From Escherichia phage BEU50: a stretch of DNA of 64,000 nucleotides. Positions 190 to 63,292 of the stretch are shown here, one piece after another. The stretch lies in sequence record OM632671.1. One strand, 5' to 3'. The translations under genes and the position numbers were made by a program. The notes beneath the pieces are model-generated. The model was given only the letters and a program-made list of their open reading frames with translations, was not told where the DNA came from and made no database searches. Within the stretch, counting starts at the first letter, position 1. Each line of letters opens with the position of its first letter.

Positions 190-218
190 TTTACAAACTC
201 TTGAGAGCAGAGTATAAT
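189..218 (+). promoter_or_regulatory. sigma70-type early promoter (-35 TTTACA, -10 TATAAT), copy A of a duplicated cassette
   Basis: TATAAT at 213-218; short inverted repeat GAGAGC/GCTCTC flanks the -10. Confidence 0.5.
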
Positions 219-8784: not shown

Positions 8785-8963
8785 AATTAACTAAAGAAGA
8801 GAAAGCTAAATTGTTCGAACTTATCCATGACCTATTGGATGAGCAAGCAGCCACCAATGCGTATGATGAATATGCTCCTTTAACAGATGAAGAATATCAA
8901 GCATTGATGGAATCATTTGACAGGAAAGAACAAGAACTCATTGACTACGTGAATTCACTATAA
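8781..8963 (+). CDS. hypothetical protein (60 aa)
   Basis: ATGA overlap. Confidence 0.4.
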   Translation: MKLTKEEKAKLFELIHDLLDEQAATNAYDEYAPLTDEEYQALMESFDRKEQELIDYVNSL

Positions 8964-10115: not shown

Positions 10116-10143
10116 AGCCCCTTCCGAAAGGTTGGGGCTTTTT
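10116..10143 (+). terminator. rho-independent terminator
   Basis: AGCCCC...GGGGCT hairpin followed by TTTTT. Confidence 0.6.
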
Positions 10144-10154
10144 GGCATCTATCA

Positions 10155-10205
10155 GTTTACTTCTCCTCAGGTTGTGTTATAGTAAACCTTACTTACTAGA
10201 GGAGA
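10155..10205 (+). promoter_or_regulatory. early promoter with imperfect inverted repeat
   Basis: GTTTAC 10155-10160, TATAGT 10178-10183. Confidence 0.45.
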
Positions 10206-10210
10206 ACGTT

Positions 10211-10390
10211 ATGACACGTAAAGAAAAAATTTCTAAGTTAATGTTTTTGATTGAAGAGTACGCTAATGCGGTATCTGATTGGGAAAATGCTCATGGTTGC
10301 GAAGATGGAGACATCGACATTAACAGAGCTATGAAAAAGATGGCTGATGCCCACACCGAATTGCAAATGTATGTTAACGAGATTATGTGA
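10211..10390 (+). CDS. hypothetical protein (59 aa)
   Basis: ATG 10211 after GAGGAGAA. Confidence 0.4.
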   Translation: MTRKEKISKLMFLIEEYANAVSDWENAHGCEDGDIDINRAMKKMADAHTELQMYVNEIM

Positions 10391-10604: not shown

Positions 10605-10642
10605 TTTACAACTTGGTAGGACTATGTTATAGTAGTCCTACC
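10604..10642 (+). promoter_or_regulatory. early promoter inside 9-bp perfect inverted repeat
   Basis: GTTTAC 10604-10609; GGTAGGACT (10615-10623) / AGTCCTACC (10634-10642). Confidence 0.5.
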
Positions 10643-10661
10643 AAAACAAATGGAGAACAAA

Positions 10662-14028: not shown

Positions 14029-14066
14029 AGACCTATCGAAACGAAATGAGTAAATTGGAGAATAAA

Positions 14067-15047
14067 ATGTTCAACGTTCAAATCAAAAAAGGTATCTATC
14101 GTAATAACGAAATCTCTGGTTCTTATGTTGCCACAAAGACATGGTTCCCGGCAAAGCTTAATCCTGAATGTTCCCACTTAGGTGATGGTAAAATTTTCGT
14201 TATGATTGATGGTTCTGAACGTGGAGTATGGGTCTTCAAATCAGACATCGTAATGGAAGGAGTTGAGACATCTCCAGTTTCAGTTGTTGAAAGCACTGAA
14301 GATATGAAAACTCGTATCAACAAACGCTTTAAAGTAATGAACATGATGACGAATGGCATTATCGATGGCAAAATTCGTTCACTCATTATTTCAGGTGCAG
14401 CCGGTATTGGTAAGACGTATTCTCTGGATAAAGCACTTAATAATGCTAATGATAATGGTTTCATCAAATACAAAAGCATTAATGGTAAAATCTCTGGTAT
14501 TGGCCTTTACGAACAACTTTGGCTCAACCGTGATGCATACAGCGTTCTCTTAATCGACGACGTTGATGTATTCTCAGATATGGACATCTTGAACCTTCTT
14601 AAAGCAGCATTAGATACCGGAGATAAACGCAAAGTTTGTTGGAGCACTGCGTCATCTTATCTCGATGATAAGGGTATTGATAAAGAATTTGAGTTTGAAG
14701 GTACTATCGTTTTCATTACAAACGTTGATATCGATAAAGAGTTAGAACGCGGTTCGAAACTTGCTCCGCACCTTCAAGCTTTAGTATCTCGTTCAGTGTA
14801 TTTGGACCTTGGAGTACACTCTAATGAAGAGATTATGGTTCGAGTTGAAGATGTAATATTATCTACTGACATGATGCAGAAACGTGGCCTGACGGATGCA
14901 GAAACGTATAAAGCATTGTCCTGGATGAAGGCTAACGTATCTCGTCTTCGCAATGTATCATTACGTACGGCTCTTTATGTAGCGGATTTTATTTCAACTG
15001 ATAAAGATGGTTGGGAGGAAATCTCTGAAGTAACTTTACTGAAATAA
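14067..15047 (+). CDS. P-loop NTPase of unknown function
   Basis: Walker A GAAGIGKT, Walker B LLIDDVD; ATG 14067 has the better SD. Confidence 0.55.
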   Translation: MFNVQIKKGIYRNNEISGSYVATKTWFPAKLNPECSHLGDGKIFVMIDGSERGVWVFKSDIVMEGVETSPVSVVESTEDMKTRINKRFKVMNMMTNGIIDGKIRSLIISGAAGIGKTYSLDKALNNANDNGFIKYKSINGKISGIGLYEQLWLNRDAYSVLLIDDVDVFSDMDILNLLKAALDTGDKRKVCWSTASSYLDDKGIDKEFEFEGTIVFITNVDIDKELERGSKLAPHLQALVSRSVYLDLGVHSNEEIMVRVEDVILSTDMMQKRGLTDAETYKALSWMKANVSRLRNVSLRTALYVADFISTDKDGWEEISEVTLLK

Positions 15048-15531: not shown

Positions 15532-16059
15532 ATGAACGCTAAAGATATTTTCAACCTGGTAAATTATAACGACGGTAAATTTAAATCTGAAGCACAAAGC
15601 AAGTTCTTTAATGACGTTGCTTATGGTAACGAGATTACCGTGGACGGAGGTCAGATTTTCAAATCTCGCTGGAATTGGATTGTTATCATCGATTCAGTTG
15701 GAATTGTGGAAGTCTACAAAAACACTAACAAAAAACGTACATTATTCTGGTCTCGTGAAACTAACGAGCAGTACAAAAAGGATAAAGCATCTCGTTTATC
15801 CAAAGTAACCCAGGAAGATATCGAGTTTATCAAGAAAGATATCGAGATGTACGAAAATTTAATCGCTGAAGACCAGGCAGTACTCGATAAGTTTGATGAA
15901 ATTAAAGCTTCTCGTGAAATCCCTGACTTCATGAAAGAAACAGTAAACGAACGATACGCTCTCACTTCAGAACGTATTGCAAACTATACAAAACAGAAAG
16001 CAGAACGTATTAGTACTCTTCGGAAATTTGAAGAACGTTTAAAGACGGTTCACGCATAA
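15532..16059 (+). CDS. hypothetical protein (175 aa)
   Basis: ATG after GGAGGT. Confidence 0.5.
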   Translation: MNAKDIFNLVNYNDGKFKSEAQSKFFNDVAYGNEITVDGGQIFKSRWNWIVIIDSVGIVEVYKNTNKKRTLFWSRETNEQYKKDKASRLSKVTQEDIEFIKKDIEMYENLIAEDQAVLDKFDEIKASREIPDFMKETVNERYALTSERIANYTKQKAERISTLRKFEERLKTVHA

Positions 16060-16061
16060 AC

Positions 16062-16086
16062 GCTTTACCCAAGGACGGGTTATAAT
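16062..16086 (+). promoter_or_regulatory. promoter of the CCAAGGA-spacer subfamily
   Basis: GCTTTACCCAAGGACGGGTTATAAT. Confidence 0.4.
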
Positions 16087-16121
16087 GGTTTTGAGTTCCA
16101 ATTCAATCTGAGGAAATAGTT

Positions 16122-17117
16122 ATGAGCATTACATCTGATGCGGTAAAACATGAAATTAACGGTTTATGTGCTTCACAGATTAAAGTGTGGTTTAAAGACC
16201 ATAATGATCGCAGAGCACTTAATTATGAGCAAATTGCTATCCAAGTTCATCAATTACTGACTAGTAAATTTGATTTTCATATGCCGTCTGAAATCTATAC
16301 TAATCTGCCGCGAGCGCTTATTAAAGCGTGTAAAGGTTACGGAAAATCAATGGCTGATGGAATCTTCAGCGCGCTGAATAAACTTAACGTTCTGTCGATG
16401 ATTAACTCTAACAACATCCTGCGTAATCTAGGACGTACTGATTTGTTCGGTCGTGAACAGTGTAAAATGCCTTTGAAATGGATTGTTGCTCATCTTAACG
16501 AGAACCAAACACGTTTTATGGCCGTATCAGCACGCTTACAAATGGGTCTAGATCGTCAGATGAACTTTAAAACTCATCCATGTTATTCAGGTTCAACAGA
16601 CTTTTATAAATGTGAGCTTCAAAAGGTTGGTGGCAAAACTGTCTTAGTAGTTCGTGTAACGTTTGAAGGACGACGTCAAGGATATTTTAACCTAATCGGC
16701 TCTGGTCTTAAACATTGTGGATTTATCGACGAAGTTGATATCAAGCGAGACGGCACTGGATATCGTATTGGATATGTTTGTACTCTTAAAGAAGAGATTT
16801 CAGGACCAGCTCCAGGACTAAAAGATGTTAGATATAAAGATGAGCTCGTTGAAGAAATAAAAGAAGTTGAATATGATATCAACCAAGAAGATGCTCTTAA
16901 AGACCTTATTGATGAACTAAACCAAGACGTTATTCCGGTTCAGAAATTTGAATCAAAACATGCTGAGCAAATCAAATACTTTGAAGCTTTGATTAACGAA
17001 CTTAATGTAACTATTCAACAGACCGACGATGAAATCTCACGATTAGCAGGCTTAAACGGTAAAAATAAAACAGAACGAGCTAATCTTATTCAAGTAGTAA
17101 AACTTCTTAAGGAATGA
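16122..17117 (+). CDS. hypothetical protein with C-terminal coiled coil (331 aa)
   Basis: Own promoter and SD. Confidence 0.55.
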   Translation: MSITSDAVKHEINGLCASQIKVWFKDHNDRRALNYEQIAIQVHQLLTSKFDFHMPSEIYTNLPRALIKACKGYGKSMADGIFSALNKLNVLSMINSNNILRNLGRTDLFGREQCKMPLKWIVAHLNENQTRFMAVSARLQMGLDRQMNFKTHPCYSGSTDFYKCELQKVGGKTVLVVRVTFEGRRQGYFNLIGSGLKHCGFIDEVDIKRDGTGYRIGYVCTLKEEISGPAPGLKDVRYKDELVEEIKEVEYDINQEDALKDLIDELNQDVIPVQKFESKHAEQIKYFEALINELNVTIQQTDDEISRLAGLNGKNKTERANLIQVVKLLKE

Positions 17118-17146
17118 TGTACAACCAAGGATGGTTGGAGTATAAT
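17116..17146 (+). promoter_or_regulatory. early promoter, CAACCAAGGATGGTTGG subfamily
   Basis: TGTACA..CAACCA-agga-TGGTTG..TATAAT 17141-17146. Confidence 0.5.
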
Positions 17147-17172
17147 AAATTTTTCAACATGAGGAATATAAA

Positions 17173-18132
17173 ATGGCTTTTATTACACGTAGAGAACTTA
17201 TCAAAGAATTTACCTCGAACGCATATACTCCAGGACCTAATCCTATCCGTATGCCTGTAAAGACTCCTGAAGAGATTGAGGAAATCTGTTCATATTATGG
17301 GATTACTTCTCGTAAGTTTACTCAATTTGAATGCGTTACTAACACACCCGTTAAAGAGTTCATTAAAAATGGTGAGTTCAGCCGTTTATTAGCCAAACAG
17401 AAACTTCGTAATTTTTGTATTGGTGGTGAAGGACAATATTTCGCTAAGCAGTTCCGGAATAACCTTAACAATCTGATGGCCATTGCTTCTCGTATTCGTC
17501 CTCAAGCAATTAACATGAAACATTTGAAATATACTTACGATAAGTTAGAAATCATGGTTATCGGTGAGAACGAGTTCACTCTTACGTATAAACCTAAGAA
17601 TGATAACGTTGCTCGTGTATTCCACCAAGCGTTGGAAGTTTTAGGTGATAATATCCACCAGATTAAAGCAATTTATTCTCGTGAGCTTAATATTATCGAC
17701 CCTATCAAGAATAAGGGCCATATCGCTATCCAGGCTCGTGTATCTATTGGTAAAAAGGTTCCTGCGCCATGGTGGCACAAAGACTCTGAATACTATCAAA
17801 ATCTTAAAAAGGAAAATGCATTGTTTGAAGCATCGCTTACTGGGACCCCAATTGAACAGGCCGAAGTCCTAAGTGCTTATTCTACTTCGGGTAAATCAAT
17901 GTTTAAAGGTTTGCCAAATGTGTGCAAACTGTCTGCAGTAAAACTAAATGTTTCTAATGACCTTCTTCCGGCCGAAGATTACCGTTACAATCAAATCAAG
18001 GCCACTATGGACCAACTGTCTGTTGAACTTGACAAAGCACAAGCTAAGCTTCGTGATGCTCAAAGTGTTGTAACGAATCTCCAGTTGCAGTATTCTAAAC
18101 TTTTTAACGCAATGAATGCATTAAAATCATAA
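17173..18132 (+). CDS. hypothetical protein with C-terminal coiled coil (319 aa)
   Basis: Own promoter and SD. Confidence 0.55.
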   Translation: MAFITRRELIKEFTSNAYTPGPNPIRMPVKTPEEIEEICSYYGITSRKFTQFECVTNTPVKEFIKNGEFSRLLAKQKLRNFCIGGEGQYFAKQFRNNLNNLMAIASRIRPQAINMKHLKYTYDKLEIMVIGENEFTLTYKPKNDNVARVFHQALEVLGDNIHQIKAIYSRELNIIDPIKNKGHIAIQARVSIGKKVPAPWWHKDSEYYQNLKKENALFEASLTGTPIEQAEVLSAYSTSGKSMFKGLPNVCKLSAVKLNVSNDLLPAEDYRYNQIKATMDQLSVELDKAQAKLRDAQSVVTNLQLQYSKLFNAMNALKS

Positions 18133-18136
18133 AATA

Positions 18137-18166
18137 GTTTACAACCAAGGATGGTTGGAGTATAAT
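18137..18166 (+). promoter_or_regulatory. early promoter, CAACCAAGGATGGTTGG subfamily
   Basis: GTTTAC 18137-18142, TATAAT 18161-18166. Confidence 0.55.
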
Positions 18167-18194
18167 GAATCTATCTTAACGAGAGGAAAATATT

Positions 18195-19145
18195 ATGACA
18201 CGTTCACATTACATTGAATACTTTGCAGGTCTTATCGCTAACGTTCATGCCCAACGTGCTTCTGGTTCATTAGGATTTGATGTTCCACACCGAGATGTAG
18301 TAAGTGGTATTCTTCGAGATTTTGGTACATACATAGGCCAAGAAAATCATATCTGTAAAGATACTCAAAATGCGTATTCTCATTCGTTAGGGACGTTGCT
18401 TCAATGGTTCAAACGTTCTCGTTTATTATCTTCTACTGTAGCTCGCGATAACATTAAAAACTTTATGAAGCCGAGCTTTATTAAATCTGTGACATCTAAA
18501 ACCGATTTGGTTGAATTCACTATTGTTAATGATGTTAAAAAGACTCATTTGGCTGATTGGTTAACTACCATTCCTGAAACTAAATTTGCTGATAAATTTG
18601 CTTGTGAATTCAATAACCAAGTGAATATGCTTTTTAAACATTCTCGTAAATTATTCACAGGCGGCGATGATCGTACAAATAAAGTTCATGCTAAAGATTG
18701 GGTTACTGCAGTGTTCAAACCAACCGGTAATGGTACCGCATCATTATCAATTGATATTCAGGTTCCTTATTATTACTCACGTAATCTCGGCACCATGAAA
18801 GCTGAAGAAATTAAGAAGCACAATAAAACCATTCGTTCGCTGTCTTATAAACTTCGCATGATGTTAAGAATCATGGACGTGGTAGAAATGTATGATGAAA
18901 CCGAAGATAATGGTTCAATGTTATACAGTTCTCGCATTCAAATTAAGTTGAAGAACCCTAACGAGTATAAGCCTAAGCCTATTAAAGAGCCTAAAGCAGA
19001 AAAAGTTGATAACTTAAGAGAAGAACGCGAATATCTCAAATCTCGTCTGAAAGAAGTCGAAGCCCAGATTGCAGAACAAACTAAATCATTAAAAGCTCTG
19101 AATGCAAAAGCGGATGGTTTACGAAATGCCATTGAGGTTTTATAA
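18195..19145 (+). CDS. hypothetical protein with C-terminal coiled coil (316 aa)
   Basis: Own promoter and SD. Confidence 0.55.
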   Translation: MTRSHYIEYFAGLIANVHAQRASGSLGFDVPHRDVVSGILRDFGTYIGQENHICKDTQNAYSHSLGTLLQWFKRSRLLSSTVARDNIKNFMKPSFIKSVTSKTDLVEFTIVNDVKKTHLADWLTTIPETKFADKFACEFNNQVNMLFKHSRKLFTGGDDRTNKVHAKDWVTAVFKPTGNGTASLSIDIQVPYYYSRNLGTMKAEEIKKHNKTIRSLSYKLRMMLRIMDVVEMYDETEDNGSMLYSSRIQIKLKNPNEYKPKPIKEPKAEKVDNLREEREYLKSRLKEVEAQIAEQTKSLKALNAKADGLRNAIEVL

Positions 19146-19450
19146 TGAAACTACGTCTTTTAGAGGATATTGATATGAGCACTAATCATGACTTGGTTAA
19201 GTTTATTGACGATAGTTCAAAGATTGAATTTGTTCAGCGAGATAAAATCCACGGTGAAGAAGAGTTCGTTCCTCCGGCATGGAACGAAATCATGAAAATG
19301 GTTGAACGACGTGAAAATGCTGCCAAATCGGCAGCAAAACATCCATGTCCGGAATGTGGAACTATCCAAGTCCAACTGGTTAACTGGACCACTGATAACT
19401 TGAAATTGAAATGCCGTAAATGCTTCCACAAATTTGAGAGAACATTATAA
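19145..19450 (+). CDS. zinc-ribbon protein (101 aa)
   Basis: CPECG...CRKC motif. Confidence 0.5.
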   Translation: MKLRLLEDIDMSTNHDLVKFIDDSSKIEFVQRDKIHGEEEFVPPAWNEIMKMVERRENAAKSAAKHPCPECGTIQVQLVNWTTDNLKLKCRKCFHKFERTL

Positions 19451-19863
19451 TGAGATATAGCCTTCGTTGTTTTATTGCAGCTTTAGTTTTTGCCATCATT
19501 CCATTCATTTGGAACAGCCAGAATACTTACATGGAAACTAAAGTAATTCCTGTGGAGGTAGTGGAATTAATTTCAGGTCAATCTACAGGAAAATATTCTA
19601 AATTAGAATTTATTGCCGTCTATAAAGATGAGCAAGGACGAGTTTTTGACAGGCGTGTATCACCGTCGTTTTATACGCTTCTGAATAAAGGTGATACGAT
19701 AGCTATAGAAATTCGTGAGATGGATATCAAACAAACTACTAAAGATAACCTGATTTGGTTCTTTGGTACAGTGTTGATGTTCTCTATCGGTATCACAGGT
19801 TTTATTACATGTATTGTATTTGGTGTTGCATATTTAATCGATGAAAGGAAAAATAATGTTTAA
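19450..19863 (+). CDS. hypothetical membrane protein (137 aa)
   Basis: N- and C-terminal hydrophobic helices. Confidence 0.5.
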   Translation: MRYSLRCFIAALVFAIIPFIWNSQNTYMETKVIPVEVVELISGQSTGKYSKLEFIAVYKDEQGRVFDRRVSPSFYTLLNKGDTIAIEIREMDIKQTTKDNLIWFFGTVLMFSIGITGFITCIVFGVAYLIDERKNNV

Positions 19864-21262: not shown

Positions 21263-23076
21263 CAATTGAAAAAGAAATTGAAGGATTGATTCATAAAACT
21301 AATAAAGACCTTTTAAACGAGAATGCTAATAAAGATTCTCGTGTTTTTCCAACTCAACGGGACCTTATGGCTGGTATTGTGTCTAAACACATTGCCAAAA
21401 ATATGGTCCCGTCTTTTATTATGAAAGCGCATGAAAGCGGAATTATCCATTTCCACGATATTGATTATTCCCCTGCTCTTCCATTTACTAATTGCTGTTT
21501 AGTAGATTTAAAAGGAATGCTTGAGAACGGGTTTAAGCTCGGTAATGCACAGATTGAAACTCCTAAATCAATCGGTGTTGCTACTGCAATTATGGCACAA
21601 ATTACTGCACAAGTTGCTTCACACCAGTATGGCGGAACGACTTTTGCTAATGTAGATAAAGTACTTTCTCCTTATGTTAAACGCACCTATGCAAAACATA
21701 TTGAGGATGCAGAAAAATGGCAAATCGCTGATGCGTTGAATTATGCTCAATCCAAAACAGAAAAAGATGTCTATGACGCATTCCAAGCTTATGAATATGA
21801 AGTAAACACTCTCTTTAGTTCAAACGGACAAACGCCTTTTGTAACAATTACATTTGGTACGGGAACTGACTGGACTGAACGAATGATTCAGAAAGCAATT
21901 CTGAAAAATCGTATTAAAGGTCTTGGTCGTGATGGGATAACTCCTATTTTCCCTAAGCTTGTTATGTTCATTGAAGAAGGTGTTAATCTTTATAAAGACG
22001 ATCCGAACTATGATATTAAGCAGCTTGCGTTAGAATGTGCAAGCAAAAGAATGTATCCTGACATTATTTCGGTTAAGAATAATAAAGCTATTACCGGTTC
22101 ATCTGTTCCTGTTTCTCCAATGGGTTGCCGTAGTTTCTTGAGTGTATGGAAAGATTCAACCGGTAATGAAATTCTTGATGGTCGCAATAATCTTGGTGTT
22201 GTAACATTGAATCTTCCTCGCATCGCGTTAGATTCTTATATTGGAACGCAATTTAACGAACAGAAATTTGTTGAATTATTCAATGAACGAATGGATTTAT
22301 GTTTTGAAGCTTTGATGTGTAGAATTAGTTCCTTAAAAGGAGTTAAAGCGACTGTTGCTCCTATTCTTTACCAAGAAGGTGCATTCGGGGTTCGTCTTAA
22401 ACCTGATGACGATATAATTGAGTTATTTAAAAATGGTAGAAGTTCAGTGTCCCTAGGATACATTGGTATTCACGAATTGAATATTCTTGTCGGTCGTGAT
22501 ATTGGACAAGAAATTTTAACTAAAATGAATGCTCATCTTAAACAGTGGACTGAAAGAACTGGATTTGCTTTTAGTTTATATTCGACTCCTGCTGAAAACC
22601 TTTGTTATCGCTTCTGTAAACTTGATACAGAAAAATATGGAAGTGTAAAAGATGTTACCGATAAAGGCTGGTACACTAACAGTTTCCACGTTTCAGTAGA
22701 AGAAAATATTACTCCGTTTGAAAAGATTTCTCGTGAAGCGCCATATCATTTCATTGCGACAGGTGGTCACATTTCTTATGTTGAACTTCCTGATATGAAA
22801 AATAACTTAAAGGGTCTTGAGGCCGTATGGGATTATGCTGCACAACATTTAGATTATTTTGGTGTTAATATGCCAGTAGATAAATGTTTTACATGCGGAA
22901 GTACCCATGAAATGACTCCTACTGAAAACGGATTTGTTTGTTCTATTTGTGGAGAAACTGATCCTAAAAAGATGAATACCATAAGAAGAACATGCGGCTA
23001 TCTTGGAACTCCTAGCGTTGTTCCATGGAATTTAGGTAAAATGAAAGAAATGGTAAAACGAGTAAAACATGCATAG
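21259..23076 (+). CDS. nrdD: anaerobic ribonucleoside-triphosphate reductase
   Basis: 605 aa; C-terminal Zn-ribbon cysteines and glycyl-radical motif RRTCGYLG. Confidence 0.95.
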   Translation: MTIEKEIEGLIHKTNKDLLNENANKDSRVFPTQRDLMAGIVSKHIAKNMVPSFIMKAHESGIIHFHDIDYSPALPFTNCCLVDLKGMLENGFKLGNAQIETPKSIGVATAIMAQITAQVASHQYGGTTFANVDKVLSPYVKRTYAKHIEDAEKWQIADALNYAQSKTEKDVYDAFQAYEYEVNTLFSSNGQTPFVTITFGTGTDWTERMIQKAILKNRIKGLGRDGITPIFPKLVMFIEEGVNLYKDDPNYDIKQLALECASKRMYPDIISVKNNKAITGSSVPVSPMGCRSFLSVWKDSTGNEILDGRNNLGVVTLNLPRIALDSYIGTQFNEQKFVELFNERMDLCFEALMCRISSLKGVKATVAPILYQEGAFGVRLKPDDDIIELFKNGRSSVSLGYIGIHELNILVGRDIGQEILTKMNAHLKQWTERTGFAFSLYSTPAENLCYRFCKLDTEKYGSVKDVTDKGWYTNSFHVSVEENITPFEKISREAPYHFIATGGHISYVELPDMKNNLKGLEAVWDYAAQHLDYFGVNMPVDKCFTCGSTHEMTPTENGFVCSICGETDPKKMNTIRRTCGYLGTPSVVPWNLGKMKEMVKRVKHA

Positions 23077-23088
23077 GGTTAAACACCA

Positions 23089-23721
23089 ATGAATTATGAC
23101 AGAATCTATTCAAATCTAGTTAATTCTGCTGAACACCCATCTAAGCCCCGTCAAACTAAAGCCGGGTATGAACTTCATCATATAATTCCAAGAAGCATGG
23201 GTGGTCCAGATGATTTAGACAACTTAGTATTTTTAACTTATAAGGCCCACTATACTGCTCACCATTTATTGGCTAAAATATATGGTGGAAAGATGTATGA
23301 TGCATATTGGATAATGAGTAATAGTAAGCATAGAAAAGTTACTTCTTCACAATACGCGTATGCAAAAGCTAAGAAATTTGAAAATCAGCGTGGCGCAAAA
23401 AGAAGCGATAAAACTAAGAAGCTAATGAGCATAGCTAGGTCTAAAGTAACTCTTCCTGATGATTTTGGAAAAAGGATATCTGATGGGCTAACAGGAAGAA
23501 CTTTGTCTACTAGTCATAAAGAGCATATCAAAAATAGTTCTAGAAATCGCTTTAACACCAAAACGGTTATTGGCTATTCACCAGACGGAAATACAATAGA
23601 ACTAACTGGAGCAACTGAAATAAGAAATGCAGGATTTTTTCATTCTGCTGTTTATAAATGTTGCAAAGGAATTCAATCTATTCATAAGGGATATACTTGG
23701 AAATATAAAGATGAATTATGA
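23089..23721 (+). CDS. HNH homing endonuclease
   Basis: MNYDRIY N-terminus; HHIIPRSMGGPDDLDNLVFLTYKAH motif; lies between nrdD and nrdG. Confidence 0.8.
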   Translation: MNYDRIYSNLVNSAEHPSKPRQTKAGYELHHIIPRSMGGPDDLDNLVFLTYKAHYTAHHLLAKIYGGKMYDAYWIMSNSKHRKVTSSQYAYAKAKKFENQRGAKRSDKTKKLMSIARSKVTLPDDFGKRISDGLTGRTLSTSHKEHIKNSSRNRFNTKTVIGYSPDGNTIELTGATEIRNAGFFHSAVYKCCKGIQSIHKGYTWKYKDEL

Positions 23722-24181
23722 TAGAATATACCCGTGCTGCTTTGTTAATGGTCCTGGATGCAGGGTCGTTCTCTTCGTCACTGGATGTTTGCATAAATGC
23801 GAAGGTTGTTATAATCGTAGTACTTGGAATGCTCGTAACGGACAGTTATTCACTATGAATACCGTTAAAGAACTTGCGTCCCATTTAAGCAAATCGTATA
23901 TCCAAGGCCTTACCTTAACCGGTGGTGACCCACTTTATCCACAGAACCGAGAAGAGATTTCAAATTTAGTTTCTTGGGTTAAAGCAAGATTTCCGGAGAA
24001 AGATATCTGGTTGTGGACAGGATATAAGTTTGAAGATATTAAACAGCTAGAAATGCTTAAATATGTTGATGTTATTATTGATGGGAAGTATGAGAAAAAT
24101 CTTCCGACTAAAAAGCTGTGGCGAGGATCAGATAATCAGCGACTTTGGTCAAATACCGATGGGGTGTGGAAACATGATTAA
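23711..24181 (+). CDS. nrdG: anaerobic ribonucleotide reductase activating protein (radical SAM)
   Basis: MNYDRIYPCCFVNGPGCR and CLHKCEGC (CxxxCxxC); ORF-track start 23627 is an upstream extension. Confidence 0.9.
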   Translation: MNYDRIYPCCFVNGPGCRVVLFVTGCLHKCEGCYNRSTWNARNGQLFTMNTVKELASHLSKSYIQGLTLTGGDPLYPQNREEISNLVSWVKARFPEKDIWLWTGYKFEDIKQLEMLKYVDVIIDGKYEKNLPTKKLWRGSDNQRLWSNTDGVWKHD

Positions 24182-26049: not shown

Positions 26050-26058
26050 TAATGTACA

Positions 26059-26093
26059 ACGATAGGAAGACATGTTATTATCTTTCCTATCGT
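26059..26093 (+). promoter_or_regulatory. promoter-like element inside an 11-bp imperfect inverted repeat
   Basis: ACGATAGGAAGA...TCTTTCCTATCGT flanking CATGTTATTA. Confidence 0.4.
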
Positions 26094-26113
26094 CTTAAAA
26101 TGAGGAAAATATC

Positions 26114-29880: not shown

Positions 29881-30140
29881 CTTTAGATGAATTTAACAAT
29901 GCTGGACTCAGGCTTGAAGTTGAAATGGACGTTAAAGATGATGATGGATTCGAGAACACTATCAAGTATTGGATTGAGCCATTACGCGTTGAAGGCAATG
30001 AAGTTAAAGCAGTTCATGTCTGCACCGACTGGGCTGTATCCTTTAACTTCAACATTTTAGATAATGACACACCTAAATCATTGCGAGATATGGCTGTATC
30101 TTGTATTAAGGATGCATACTGTGAAGTTTTCGACATTTGA
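29877..30140 (+). CDS. hypothetical protein (87 aa)
   Basis: ATGA overlap with gene 47. Confidence 0.45.
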   Translation: MTLDEFNNAGLRLEVEMDVKDDDGFENTIKYWIEPLRVEGNEVKAVHVCTDWAVSFNFNILDNDTPKSLRDMAVSCIKDAYCEVFDI

Positions 30141-30156
30141 CATTAATGATGAATTC
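30108..30156 (+). repeat. diverged direct repeat, copy A (SD + GTGAAG start + first codons)
   Basis: AAGGA, GTGAAG and GA(C/T)ATTAATGA(T/C)GAATT in the same spacing as 30312..30358. Confidence 0.5.
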
Positions 30157-30327
30157 ATAGCAAACATTGATTATACCGAAGAAGATTCTAGATATGTTGG
30201 AATAATTTATATTACATCAAAAACAGCACAAGGCGTTGTTTGCATGGCTGAATTTGATGAATACTTTTTAGATTATGATGATATGATAGAATGGTCTAAA
30301 AGATACATTAAAAGGAATCTTTTGTGA
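30121..30327 (+). CDS. hypothetical protein (about 68 aa)
   Basis: GTG start with AAGGA SD; N-terminus duplicated at the start of the downstream HNH gene. Confidence 0.4.
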   Translation: MKFSTFDINDEFIANIDYTEEDSRYVGIIYITSKTAQGVVCMAEFDEYFLDYDDMIEWSKRYIKRNLL

Positions 30328-30358
30328 AGAATTTTAAACTTGATATTAATGACGAATT
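30312..30358 (+). repeat. diverged direct repeat, copy B, at the start of the HNH gene
   Basis: Collinear with 30108..30156. Confidence 0.5.
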
Positions 30359-31178
30359 TTTAATAAAGGAATTAGTTGAAAAATTAGTGTTGAGCGAAGA
30401 AGACGCCAAGTCTTACATTAATTTTATTTCTATGAATTCAACTGTTAAAACTCCGGGTAAAACGGAAGCACATCACGTGCTTCCTAAATCAATATTTCCT
30501 GAATATTTAAAATCTACATGGAATTTAGTTAATTTAAGTCATTTTAATCATTTCAAAGCACATTTCTTATTAGCAAAAGGTAAAAATGGAAAAATGCTAA
30601 ATGCTTTAAATAGAATGATGTCAGGAAAAACATATAAAAATTTATCTTTAGCCGAAGTTGATTTAATAGCTGCTGAATATAGTTTTATAAGACAAGATGT
30701 AAGTGACACAATATCAAAAAGGCTTCAACAATATTATTCAAATCCGCAAAATAGAAATGCTGCTAGAGAAAGGGCATTAAAATATTTTTCAGTAGCAAAA
30801 AATAGGAAAGATAACAAAGAAAGATTAAATAATTTTAAAACAAAACAAAAAATTTCAATGGCTTCAAGGGAATGGTTTAATAACGAAGAAAATAAAATTA
30901 AACACCAAAAGGCTGTTCGTGCTGCTTTATCAAAACCTGAATATAAAATAGCTATATCAAATTCAGTAGCTGCTAGTTGGAAAAATCCGGAGATTAGAAA
31001 AGCTCATATAGCATCTCGACGAAAAGGCTATCATTGGGATAATAAAGATAAATTGTATGAATTGTGGATATCATATAATCGTCCTAAACATGTGATGTTT
31101 AGGAAAATGTTAGTTAAGAATGGATATCCAATAGAGGCTTCATTACAGGCTTTAGTTAAAGAATTTTCTTCATTGTGA
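30324..31178 (+). CDS. HNH homing endonuclease inserted between genes 47 and 46
   Basis: GTG start; AHHVLPKSIFPEY...LVNLSHFNHFKAH motif; Lys-rich NUMOD-like C-terminus. Confidence 0.75.
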   Translation: MKNFKLDINDEFLIKELVEKLVLSEEDAKSYINFISMNSTVKTPGKTEAHHVLPKSIFPEYLKSTWNLVNLSHFNHFKAHFLLAKGKNGKMLNALNRMMSGKTYKNLSLAEVDLIAAEYSFIRQDVSDTISKRLQQYYSNPQNRNAARERALKYFSVAKNRKDNKERLNNFKTKQKISMASREWFNNEENKIKHQKAVRAALSKPEYKIAISNSVAASWKNPEIRKAHIASRRKGYHWDNKDKLYELWISYNRPKHVMFRKMLVKNGYPIEASLQALVKEFSSL

Positions 31179-31193
31179 ACAATTGGATACAAA

Positions 31194-51913: not shown

Positions 51914-51948
51914 GTTTACATTATAGATGGACTATAGTATAGTAGTCC
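51914..51948 (+). promoter_or_regulatory. early promoter with inverted repeat
   Basis: GTTTAC 51914-51919; GGACTA / TAGTCC arms. Confidence 0.45.
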
Positions 51949-51972
51949 TATCAAATCAACTAAGGAGTTAAA

Positions 51973-61107: not shown

Positions 61108-61785
61108 ATGAGCACTGATGTTATTATAGATTTTGAAACATTCGGCAATACATCAAAAGCGGCTGTTATTGACCTTGCGGTTATTGCATATAATTCCGAC
61201 CCTGAAGTTGTTGAATCATTTGAAGAACTTGTTCAACGAGGTAAGCGAATTAAATTTAATTTAGCTTCTCAGAAAGGGAAGCGAGTTTTCGCTAAATCCA
61301 CTATGAAATGGTGGAAAGAACAATCGGCTGAAGCGCGTAAAAACTTGGCTCCGTCTGAAGACGATGTCACTACGCTTGAAGGCATTAAAATCTTTTTAGA
61401 CTATTGCCGAGCTAATAAAGTTGACCAATGGAAATCACAGATGTGGTGCCGTGGTATGAGCTTTGACTTCCCGATCTTGGTCGATTTGATTCGTGACCTC
61501 TATCGTGATGAAGGTGTTCTTGAACCAGATATTGATACTGATAAATTAGAACCGGTTAAATTCTGGGCTCAACGCGATATTCGTACGGCAATCGAAGCTT
61601 ACTCTTTGACACGAGGATTAAGTATGTGTCCATTACCGATGGGTACGCTAAAAGGATTCGTTGCCCATGATAGTATTCATGATTGTGCTAAAGATATTTT
61701 GATGTTAAAATATGCTCAGCGTTATGCGCTTGGCCTTGAAGATGTACCTGAGAATCCTGACCCGTTAAGTGTAAAACAGCGATAA
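61108..61785 (+). CDS. dexA: exonuclease A (DEDD family)
   Basis: IIDFETFG...AHDSIHDCAKDI matches T4 DexA. Confidence 0.85.
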   Translation: MSTDVIIDFETFGNTSKAAVIDLAVIAYNSDPEVVESFEELVQRGKRIKFNLASQKGKRVFAKSTMKWWKEQSAEARKNLAPSEDDVTTLEGIKIFLDYCRANKVDQWKSQMWCRGMSFDFPILVDLIRDLYRDEGVLEPDIDTDKLEPVKFWAQRDIRTAIEAYSLTRGLSMCPLPMGTLKGFVAHDSIHDCAKDILMLKYAQRYALGLEDVPENPDPLSVKQR

Positions 61786-61789
61786 AACA

Positions 61790-61819
61790 GTTTACAACCA
61801 AGGACGGTTGGAGTATAAT
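61790..61819 (+). promoter_or_regulatory. early promoter, CAACCAAGGA subfamily
   Basis: GTTTAC 61790-61795, TATAAT 61814-61819. Confidence 0.55.
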
Positions 61820-61850
61820 CTTTCTATCTTAACCAAACAGGAAAAACATT

Positions 61851-62345
61851 ATGAATATCAATACTACGGCTACTTACATCCTGAAAGACGAAAAACAAAT
61901 CAACTGGTACGGTGCTTCAGTGAGAGCTTATGAAAAGTTTTGTGAAATTTTAGGTGCCACTCAAGGTAATAGTTTCACTATTGTTAACTTCATCAAACAA
62001 GCTGAAGGCCCTTGGTTATTCTTAGAAATTAAAAATTCATACGGTACAATTTCTACTACCGCCCTTCCAAGCACCGACTTTGAACTGTTGATTGAAGAAG
62101 TAGAACCCGGTAAAGACATCTGTATTGATATGGATATCGCTTGTATGTACGGTACTCTGATTAAGCCTATTGAGCCTACTGATTTGTTGTGTAAAGCTGT
62201 TTCAATTCGACGTCCGTTCGCAGGTCCAGTGAGTGGATGGGTAACTGATCAATGGATTGAAGACGGTGTTGAACTTCTGAACGTTGTTCATGCAGGTGAT
62301 TTTAGTGTAGTTCCACGTAGTGCTGTGGTTAATATCCTTAATTAA
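61851..62345 (+). CDS. member of a tandem paralogous family (164 aa)
   Basis: Shares C-terminal GWVTDQWIEDG...LNVVHAGDFSVV with the next two genes. Confidence 0.55.
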   Translation: MNINTTATYILKDEKQINWYGASVRAYEKFCEILGATQGNSFTIVNFIKQAEGPWLFLEIKNSYGTISTTALPSTDFELLIEEVEPGKDICIDMDIACMYGTLIKPIEPTDLLCKAVSIRRPFAGPVSGWVTDQWIEDGVELLNVVHAGDFSVVPRSAVVNILN

Positions 62346-62346
62346 T

Positions 62347-62378
62347 GTTGTACATCCAAGGATGGATGGAGTATAGTG
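62347..62378 (+). promoter_or_regulatory. early promoter, CCAAGGATGG subfamily
   Basis: TTGTAC..CCAAGGATGGATGG..TATAGT. Confidence 0.45.
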
Positions 62379-62407
62379 AATTCAATTTAAACAAAGAGAG
62401 AAAAATT

Positions 62408-62863
62408 ATGATTACTATTGGTGAAATTAAGCGTGTATCGTCTGCATCTCGTTCTAAAGCTGCAGGTCGTCTAGTTGAAGTGGTAGGACTTCGTACTAAT
62501 GGTACTGGTCGTGTTAAAGAAGTTAAAGTTCGAATCATTCCTAGTTCTGGAAAAACTGAAACTCAGTACGCTTACGTAAGTCCTAAATTTTTGGAAACTC
62601 CTGTGAGCGCTCATTTTGCTTCTACTGAACCTAATGCACAGTTCAAATGGGCCCTTTGCAAAGGTGTTGAATTCCAGACGGATAAAGAATTTGACTTCAT
62701 CGATGAATACGGTTATCCAAGCAAAACTGATACTATGTGTGGCTTCATTAGTGACCAATGGGTTGAAGATGGTGAAAAGTTATACAATATCGTATTCTTA
62801 GGTGACTTCCGAGTTGTTAAAGAATCTGAAATCACTCGCTATGTGTCTCCTCGTAAAGCTTAA
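62408..62863 (+). CDS. member of a tandem paralogous family (151 aa)
   Basis: GFISDQWVEDGEKLYNIVFLGDFRVV; ATG 62408 after AGAGAG. Confidence 0.55.
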   Translation: MITIGEIKRVSSASRSKAAGRLVEVVGLRTNGTGRVKEVKVRIIPSSGKTETQYAYVSPKFLETPVSAHFASTEPNAQFKWALCKGVEFQTDKEFDFIDEYGYPSKTDTMCGFISDQWVEDGEKLYNIVFLGDFRVVKESEITRYVSPRKA

Positions 62864-62872
62864 GGAATTATT

Positions 62873-63292
62873 ATGAATATTGTAAATCTCTCTACAGGTG
62901 ATTATGTATATGTATCCGTTGCTTCTCGCTCTAAAGTTGCCGGGAAGTTGGTTGAAGTTCTTTCTGTGAGTGATCCGGTTTTTGGACGTAACGAAGTTAA
63001 AGTTCGTGACGCTGATGGTAACATTGGTTATGTCTCAAGCCAATTCATTGAACCAGAAGAAAAAGCGTTCAAATGGGGACTATGCAGATCAGTTTCTGTT
63101 GAAAAAGACCATGAATTCACTATTGCTGCGGCAACTGATGGAACACCGTGGAAAACTAAGCAAATCGCTGGATTTATTAGCGACCGTTGGGTAGAAGATG
63201 GTGTTAAGCTTTATAACATCGTTTTCGCTGGACAGTTCATGGTAGTTCCTGAATTCCAAATTAAAAAATATAGCCCAGCTGCTTTCGCATAA
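62873..63292 (+). CDS. member of a tandem paralogous family (139 aa)
   Basis: GFISDRWVEDGVKLYNIVFAGQFMVV. Confidence 0.55.
   Translation: MNIVNLSTGDYVYVSVASRSKVAGKLVEVLSVSDPVFGRNEVKVRDADGNIGYVSSQFIEPEEKAFKWGLCRSVSVEKDHEFTIAAATDGTPWKTKQIAGFISDRWVEDGVKLYNIVFAGQFMVVPEFQIKKYSPAAFA

Follow-up and report, generated by a model that had tools for sequence, protein, structure and literature searches.

Near-identical predicted early promoters with a spacer hairpin in an RB69-like phage are probably recombining promoter-early stem-loop cassettes

The 64,000-nucleotide (nt) stretch of Escherichia phage BEU50 analysed here (sequence record OM632671.1; hereafter the window) derives from an RB69-like T-even phage (Mosigvirus) and contains four predicted sigma70-type early promoters that share a nearly identical core of 29 bp, including an inverted repeat in the spacer between -35 and -10. 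Relatives of this phage differ at both loci concerned by exactly one gene plus one promoter copy, with the junctions inside the core. These observations support copying and recombination of a promoter cassette as the source of the near-identity. The elements are probably promoter-early stem-loop (PeSL) cassettes, composite units with promoter, hairpin and recombination roles. This kind of cassette is already known; the well-delimited Mosigvirus member described here is new.

The four promoter copies are the following:

17118-17146, + strand: predicted early promoter P17118, core TGTACAACCAAGGATGGTTGGAGTATAAT, with -35 TGTACA (17118-17123), a 17-nt spacer and -10 TATAAT (17141-17146).
18138-18166, + strand: predicted early promoter P18138, core TTTACAACCAAGGATGGTTGGAGTATAAT, with -35 TTTACA, -10 TATAAT (18161-18166) and the hairpin at 18142-18157.
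61791-61819, + strand: predicted early promoter P61791, core TTTACAACCAAGGACGGTTGGAGTATAAT, beginning 6 nt after the dexA stop codon, with -10 TATAAT (61814-61819).
62349-62377, + strand: predicted early promoter P62349, core TGTACATCCAAGGATGGATGGAGTATAGT, preceding motB, with -35 TGTACA and -10 TATAGT (62372-62377).

The common core has the sigma70 form T(T/G)TACA-N17-TATA(A/G)T and scores 10-11 of 12 for -35, 17-nt spacing and -10 at all four sites; P18138 is the best sigma70 match of its region (11/12) and carries a 'promoter' annotation in phage NBG1. Compared with P18138, the core is identical at 28/29 positions in P17118, 28/29 in P61791 and 25/29 in P62349. A search of the window with CAACCAAGGATGGTTGG, allowing at most three mismatches, returned four matches, all on the + strand (exact at 17122 and 18142, one mismatch, T to C, at 61795 and two at 62353), against 0.14 expected, and none of 100 shuffled sequences reached four. 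An earlier, sequence-only reading of the window had reported a nearly identical core with a spacer hairpin at these four places; it was right, and its positions were accurate to within 1-2 nt.

The inverted repeat of the four spacers can be written CA(A/T)CCA-AGGA-TGG(A/T)TG. Its 5' arm starts within the -35 hexamer (the CA of TTTACA) and its 3' arm ends 3 nt before the -10. It reads CAACCA-AGGA-TGGTTG in P17118 (17122-17137). In P61791 (61795-61810), an A.C apposition at the loop-closing position leaves a 5-bp stem and an AAGGAC loop, and in P62349 (CATCCA-AGGA-TGGATG, 62353-62368) both mismatches are compensatory. Each element fills a gap of 55-65 bp between co-oriented early genes: the -35 of P17118 abuts the TGA stop codon (17115-17117) of the open reading frame (ORF) 16122-17117, and at all four sites the Shine-Dalgarno sequence and start codon (SD-ATG) of the next gene lie 26-31 nt past the -10. 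An A/T-rich tract, judged by eye and without statistics, stands upstream of the -35 (ATCATAAAATAG, GCGATAAAACAG, CTTAATTAATGT). None of the four has the extended -10 motif TGn, the -10 being preceded by GAG throughout; the four combine a perfect -10 with the lack of TGn, whereas most other early promoters of the genome show the reverse, with TGT or TGA present.

The description of these sites as sigma70-type promoters agrees with earlier work, as their RB69 orthologues had already been predicted as early promoters Pe:52042, Pe:51019, Pe:8947 and Pe:8387 (Nolan et al. 2006, PMC1524935, Additional file 3). The RB69 sites are spaced 1023 and 560 nt apart, compared with 1020 and 558 nt in the window, and a 31-mer from the sites maps to RB69 8904-8933. 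The repeat is conserved across Mosigvirus, Dhakavirus and Tequatrovirus genomes, and ~250 genomes carry the motif.

Natural recombinants exist at both loci. Phages p000v and FL31 cover 53% of query 16600-18700 by megablast, in two pieces spanning 1081 bp, and both are without the ORF 17173-18132 plus one promoter copy, exactly 1020 bp in p000v. The p000v junction reads ...CTTAAGGAATGA-TGTACAACCAAGGATGGTTGGAGTATAAT-GAATCTATCTTAAC..., in which the upstream flank and the -35 variant of P17118 are joined to the downstream flank of P18138, and the crossover lies inside a 27-nt identical stretch. At the second locus, phages JK45, RPN187 and S143_2 are without 558 bp, corresponding to the ORF 61851-62345 plus one promoter copy; in JK45, dexA is followed by a single canonical promoter and then by the motB leader, with the junction inside the promoter. 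The same two junction types occur in independent metagenome contigs (the 1020-bp type in L072 and the 558-bp type in L058). Between genera, megablast similarity begins or ends at P61791 (query 641-644 and 596-597, equivalent to window 61840-61843 and 61795-61796). Adjacent cores are 28/29 identical, similarity of the flanks ends abruptly at the core edges, and the proteins on the two sides have little or no relationship to each other.

The sites were also considered as the target of a homing endonuclease. This was rejected, as neither locus has such a gene as a neighbour in the annotation of Escherichia phage a20.

Phage a20 is the closest relative of the window: a megablast search with 16000-19500 matched 517 phage records, headed by a20 (98.9%) and followed by other Mosigvirus. 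Early genes are encoded by the + strand of the window, which aligns to a20 143140-80124, minus strand. Two window segments are replaced or expanded relative to a20, 23012-24008 (996 bp versus 358 bp) and 30035-31187 (1152 bp versus 316 bp). The first locus (around 17118 and 18138) corresponds to the nrdC.x block, and the RB69 names of the matched ORFs are nrdC.6, nrdC.5 and nrdC.3; the second consists of dexA followed by three MotB-family genes. The genes next to the elements are the following:

16122-17117, + strand: ORF of 331 amino acids (aa), phrog_2257, downstream of a decayed element at 16064 (see below).
17173-18132, + strand: ORF of 319 aa, DUF7235, phrog_2351, between P17118 and P18138 and preceded by P17118.
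18195-19145, + strand: ORF of 316 aa, nrdC.3 type, phrog_1435, preceded by P18138.
61108-61785, + strand: dexA-type exonuclease gene, directly upstream of P61791.
61851-62345, + strand: ORF of 164 aa with a MotB-like C-terminus, phrog_2333, between P61791 and P62349 and preceded by P61791.
62408-62863, + strand: motB, 151 aa, PF17613 (E=7.7e-38), preceded by P62349.

The three consecutive MotB-family genes behind dexA (164, 151 and 139 aa) occupy window 61851-63292; in the first of them, the MotB model is matched by the C-terminal ~70 residues only. The MotB-type genes next to dexA are true paralogues, both belonging to the MotB family, as the sequence-only reading had proposed. It had also taken the three tandem ORFs of ~320 aa (16122, 17173 and 18195) to be driven by this promoter, but an intact promoter of this type precedes only two of them. 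The three are not recognisable as paralogues: BLASTP found no mutual similarity among them, and they fall into three separate PHROGs. A faint hint connects 17173 with 18195: ORF 17173 and the T4-like nrdC.4 both match phrog_26858 at ~1e-3, and the T4-like nrdC.3 and nrdC.4 are both phrog_1435. ORF 16122-17117 has no detectable similarity to the other two. The suggested origin by duplication holds for the promoter cassette, which was copied or recombined according to the indel junctions in the core, but not for the flanking ~320-aa ORFs, which are not close paralogues. One 29-bp core serves unrelated genes 44 kb apart, namely nrdC-region ORFs and motB-family genes. Farther upstream, the window encodes a 333-aa ORF (14046-15047, + strand; phrog_1250) whose matches to P-loop/AAA families (AAA_22, AAA_16, nSTAND3) and to HTH_37 are weak and stay below the Pfam cut-offs.

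A fifth, looser element precedes the first of the ~320-aa ORFs:

16064-16086, + strand: decayed relative, CTTTACCCAAGGACGGGTTATAAT, in which the hairpin ACCC-AAGGAC-GGGT (16067-16080) is directly followed by TATAAT (16081-16086).

The sequence-only reading had listed this element, at 16062, as a looser version of the same promoter. The hairpin and a perfect -10 are indeed present, but no -35 is found at a usable distance: AAACGC occupies the place 16-18 nt from the -10, and TTTAC lies just 11-12 nt from it. The element is probably a decayed promoter copy. The T4-like nrdC.4 promoter GTTTACTTTACCACAAGGATGTGGTATAAT has the same layout and can be aligned with it by eye, although orthology is not established.

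The four hairpins belong to a wider family. A genome-wide motif search, which the sequence-only reading had proposed, was made as an unbiased 10-mer scan of a20 and found CCAAGGAYGG in 8 copies; each of them lies in a promoter spacer on the early strand and is flanked by at least two extra Watson-Crick pairs. Hairpins of the form stem-AAGGAY-stem number 8 in a20 versus 0.93+-0.92 in shuffled sequences. Family members outside the window include copies at a20 32154 (CATCCAAGGACGGAT, with an 18-nt spacer) and at a20 40798 and 143449 (CACC-AAGGAT-GGTG, with -10 TACTAT), as well as a relative before rnlA (TACCACAA-gga-TTGTGGTA). Outside Mosigvirus, the region upstream of the T4-like nrdC.3 contains AGCC-AAGGAT-GGCT-CGGAGTATAAAT without a -35, and JS98-like phages carry CATCC..GGATG before an nrdC.3-type gene starting MTRTEY. 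The 30-mer ACCACAAGGATGTGG of the T4-like nrdC.4 promoter was found in 784 phage records, including T4 itself, where the copy (T4 2429-2458; L083) lies directly after the stop codon of gene 60 and before rIIA.1.

Two side observations concern these T4-like elements. In T4 and close relatives, an identical 30-mer promoter with the hairpin ACCACA-AGGA-TGTGGT occurs at two distant loci, rIIA.1 and nrdC.4 (L076, 300-330), and related 26-nt matches to it exist in Klebsiella and Raoultella T4-like phages. Upstream of nrdC.3 in the T4-like phage KMB40 (L076, 1340-1400), the hairpin AGCC-AAGGAT-GGCT is followed by CGGAGTATAAATC, with no -35; the TATAAAT of this half-element resembles the T4 late-promoter core TATAAATA and may reflect either re-use or plain decay.

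The stem covaries. In a gapless, loop-aligned set of 13 distinct family members, 92.3% of the stem cells are paired, compared with 66.1% when columns are shuffled (0/500 shuffles), and the covariation score is 0.587 compared with 0.134 (0/500). Pairing drops to 18-51% when the partner is slid by 1-3 columns. Counted from the loop, the third pair occurs as AU, UA, CG, GC and GU, and the fourth as AU, CG and UG. Pattern scans of IMG/VR and JGI metagenomes with the stem positions left free returned few T-even contigs and serve as an unbiased check, not as a broad phylogenetic count; in them, T-even copies form 5-6 of 6 pairs and most unrelated matches, the negative control, 0-3 of 6. One-sided variants are also found, CAGCC..GGTTG (L030) and CTTCC..GGAGG (L018, L024, L064), both with G.U wobbles on the sense strand; the former is the step one would expect on the way between AACC/GGTT and the T4-like AGCC/GGCT. 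Folding gives stems of 5-6 bp as the minimum free energy or centroid structure. Rfam had no match, either at the gathering threshold for the window as a whole or at E<=1 for 15900-18400, and a literature string search for the motif returned unrelated primer sequences only.

Spacer conservation itself is widespread in the genome. In a20, the closest complete genome (169 kb), promoter-like sites on the early strand with an SD-ATG behind them give a list of 50 candidates, a number similar to the 58 predicted early promoters of RB69. When the 16 spacer positions adjoining the -10 were compared, 26 promoter pairs were at least 12/16 identical, versus 0.12 in shuffles, and 24 of the 50 promoters fell into six spacer-similarity clusters, one of which consists of the four sites. 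Among the other clusters are ACTCTTGAGAGCAGAG, with three copies (the one in the window is at 190), TCTCCTC.GGTTGTGT, with five, and ..GGTAGGACTATGT, with seven. Of the 50 promoter regions, 15 contain perfect inverted repeats of 7 bp or more (2.7+-1.6 in shuffles) and 10 contain stems of 8 bp or more (0.86 in shuffles); most of the long repeats straddle the -10, for example the 12-bp repeat TTGGTAGGACTA-tgttatag-TAGTCCTACCAA. Because six clusters exist, with embedded inverted repeats enriched throughout, the conserved spacer is not a sign of a special regulon: hairpin-bearing, spacer-conserved subfamilies are a general property of the early promoters of this phage. The sequence-only reading had regarded such conservation as special on the premise that ordinary sigma70 promoters lack it; to a large extent the other early promoters of the genome have it as well. 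For annotation, this is a caution that promoter-spacer conservation in these phages is no evidence of a regulon.

Several of these other elements deserve mention in their own right. A second tight subfamily, T(T/G)TACAAACTCT(T/C)G(A/G)GAGCAGAGTATAATGCTC(T/C)C, is represented at window 190-218 (+ strand) and at a20 142951, 70037 and 39393; its 7-8-bp stem (GAGAGCA..TGCTCTC) encloses the -10 and has compensatory GAGAGC/GCTCTC and GGGAGC/GCTCCC variants within one genome. Long perfect repeats straddling the -10 are found on the + strand at window 10605-10650, 26053-26100 and 51915-51960, among them ACGATAGGAAG..CTTCCTATCGT (11 bp); these are of the AGNA..TCNT PeSL type of T4/PST. At a20 132374-132632, a tandem duplication of ~127 bp spans an entire early promoter (TTTACTTCTCCTCAGGTTGTGTTATAGT) together with the first part of the ORF behind it; window 10128-10260 has a single copy.

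A mechanism can be proposed for these elements as PeSL cassettes. Judging from the promoter sequence, host sigma70 RNA polymerase would fire T(T/G)TACA-17 nt-TATAAT straight after infection, and transcripts starting ~7 nt past the -10 would have a leader of ~20 nt with a Shine-Dalgarno sequence. The spacer hairpin would be absent from the promoter's own transcript and would exist solely in read-through RNA from upstream promoters, where, 4-10 nt beyond the stop codon of the preceding gene, it would form a hairpin of 4-6 bp with an AAGGAY loop; in dexA read-through transcripts, for instance, 9 nt would separate the stop codon from the P61791 hairpin. There it would most likely act as a weak attenuator or as a 3'-end protective or processing structure. 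At the DNA level, the near-identical cores of 27-47 bp are dispersed direct repeats, with which phage homologous recombination would delete, insert or swap the gene between two copies and would also keep the copies alike. The repeat family, the covariation of the stem and the indel junctions inside the core are established here. A promoter cassette of this kind would be an expression signal and a recombination handle in one, so that a gene between two copies would arrive expressed and could be lost precisely.

Several points weigh against this interpretation. The indels at both loci fit gain as well as loss. The four sites are sigma70-type early promoters as inferred from sequence, and the same holds for their activity and timing. 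Hairpin energies are unremarkable (-6.2 to -8.6 kcal/mol; z -0.4 to -2.1), and the case for the stem is carried by the covariation because the z-scores alone are unconvincing. The covarying copies are paralogues and orthologues related by descent and thus represent few independent events, and complementarity could be regained in the absence of selection by templated mutation of quasi-palindromes, known from T4 genetics. Among the CCAAGGAYGG copies, neither the loop nor the inner CC/GG pairs vary, and part of the hairpin conservation could be due to sequence-specific recognition or to plain common descent. An intrinsic terminator was considered and rejected: behind the stem stands GGAGUAUAAU and not a U tract, and no terminator-like site was called on the + strand at the four positions. 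The 'effective terminator' property of the G/C-rich RB49 PeSL stems may be absent here.

Among alternative roles for the hairpin, RNA processing by RegB as the selected one is unlikely. According to this explanation, the hairpin followed by GGAGUAUAAU, or the GGAU of the loop, would be a site for RegB/S1 endonuclease; cleavage would part the upstream cistrons from the downstream ones, and the message of the former would then end in a hairpin that protects it, a minor view that partly overlaps with the PeSL interpretation. RegB cuts GG*AG/U in intergenic regions of early genes, and the phage encodes a RegB-type endoribonuclease (a20_227). At 17135-17147, 18155-18167, 61808-61820 and 62366-62378, GGAG immediately follows the hairpin and, joined with the -10 box, reads GGAGUAUAAU in read-through RNA; GGAGUAUAAUN, or GGAGUAUAAUA/G/C across the four window sites, agrees with the RegB/S1 strong-site consensus GG*AGRAYARAA (PMC3014915) at 8-9 of 11 positions, and the one-sided, G.U-compatible changes point to a structure at the RNA level. 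However, consensus positions 5 and 10 are mismatched, the wider hairpin family is without GGAG (GGTGATACTAT stands in the CACC class and TGTGGTATAAT in that of T4 rIIA.1/nrdC.4), and the loop base Y alternates, giving either GGAU or GGAC.

It is similarly doubtful that the invariant CCAAGGAYGG hairpin, present in 8 promoter spacers per Mosigvirus genome and with T4 relatives at rIIA.1 and nrdC.4, is a specific recognition element, in RNA or DNA, for a phage or host factor such as RegB/S1, a MotB-family protein or a recombination protein. If it were, a subset of early units that includes the motB paralogues would be under common post-transcriptional or recombinational control, and the hairpin would be no passive passenger.

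A shared regulator, one of the origins suggested by the sequence-only reading, is quite unlikely. The conserved spacer would then be an operator, and a phage or host DNA-binding protein on the CCAAGGAYGG palindrome, MotB being one candidate, would co-regulate a small regulon. The 10-mer is invariant in 8 promoters and found nowhere else in 169 kb, two of the copies drive motB-family genes, and T4 early promoters carry extra conserved positions of unknown role (PMC2988021). The arrangement of the hairpin, however, does not suit an operator: its distance from the -10 varies by 0-5 nt, and that from the -35 varies too, which a fixed RNA polymerase geometry would tolerate poorly. The half-sites AACC/GGTT, ATCC/GGAT, CACC/GGTG and ACCC/GGGT coexist in one genome, so that complementarity is kept rather than sequence, and CAGCC..GGTTG and CTTCC..GGAGG break the DNA palindrome while keeping G.U pairs. 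With a register that varies, several half-site variants side by side and wobble changes, a dedicated DNA-binding regulator is unlikely, and five other spacer-conserved subfamilies make a special one superfluous.

Very unlikely, too, is the explanation that the similarity is a neutral leftover of recent tandem gene duplication, with a functionless spacer and repeat. The copies are adjacent and co-oriented, and the motB-like genes are paralogous; the common phrog_1435 assignment of nrdC.3 and nrdC.4, with the weak phrog_26858 match of ORF 17173, indicates that an ancient gene-plus-promoter duplication did happen. Yet the proteins behind P17118 and P18138 have no BLASTP similarity, while their cores are 28/29 identical with sharp edges. 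Neutral inheritance cannot account for the adjacent cores because decay would erase a non-coding stretch of 29 bp before proteins diverge to this extent. The presence of one core before unrelated genes 44 kb apart and the compensatory changes in the stem also argue against it. Finally, chance or a composition artefact, for which only the modest folding energies would speak, is refuted by the excess of matches (4 versus 0.14 expected) and hairpins (8 versus 0.93) and by conservation across Mosigvirus, Dhakavirus and Tequatrovirus.

The closest known systems are the PeSLs of phages RB49 and phi1, composite intergenic cassettes that combine an A/T-rich lead, a sigma70 promoter and a stem-loop with the SD-ATG of the gene that follows (Arbiol et al. 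2010, PMC2839356). Five subclasses were distinguished by position, and most commonly the stem-loop lies between -35 and -10 or over the -10; the elements were demonstrated to act as promoters and terminators, to contain crossovers and to yield excised mini-circles (PMC2839356). The window elements resemble them in the sigma70 -35/N17/-10 arrangement with an embedded stem-loop, in the A/T-rich lead and in the SD-ATG at the 3' end, as well as in forming many near-identical copies in hyperplastic early regions and in the crossovers of relatives' indels inside the element. At the level of sequence, they agree with PeSLs in every defining feature. They differ in that the RB49 stems are G-run/C-run and terminating, whereas those of the window, 4-6 bp long and mixed in sequence, have a conserved AAGGAY loop and lack a U tract. 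Another difference is the -35, being TTGACA in RB49 and TTTACA or TGTACA here, and mini-circles were seen in RB49/phi1, whereas the window elements are known from sequence alone.

PeSLs were also described in T4/PST (AGNA-loop-TCNT stems with TTTACW-N17-TAYWAT) and in KVP40/nt-1, including 'degraded' half-elements (Comeau et al. 2014, PMC4122927). The T4/PST elements share the phage subfamily and promoter consensus with those of the window, and their AGNA..TCNT type is abundant in the window too, for example as TAGGACTA-tgttatag-TAGTCCTA at 10605 and 51915. In contrast, the hairpin of the four sites lies wholly upstream of the -10 and has another stem and loop (CCAAGGAYGG). Mosigvirus genomes were apparently not analysed in that study (PMC4122927). 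For RB69, Nolan et al. 2006 (PMC1524935) gave early promoter coordinates, predicted by a hidden Markov model, and an overall logo; the searched text of that paper has no mention of subfamilies, a hairpin or an association with indels.

Compared with the T4-type early 'uber' promoter (UP/-35/TGn/-10; Hinton 2010), the four sites have the GTTTAC-type -35 and the TATAAT-type -10 but lack TGn. The T4 rIIA.1 promoter TAGTTTACTTTACCACAAGGATGTGGTATAAT and the identical nrdC.4 30-mer resemble them in having a stem, an AGGA loop and a stem between -35 and -10, in following directly upon a stop codon and in placing one sequence at two distant loci; they differ in the stem itself (ACCACA/TGTGGT), which abuts the -10 without the GAG spacer. 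The variants of p000v and JK45, which place crossovers in the promoter core, thus extend the PeSL model to another genus, as well as to a class of stem-loops with a conserved AAGGAY loop that is found in T4 too, and they offer a clean sequence-level example, in RB69-like phages, of the reshuffling of T-even accessory early genes.

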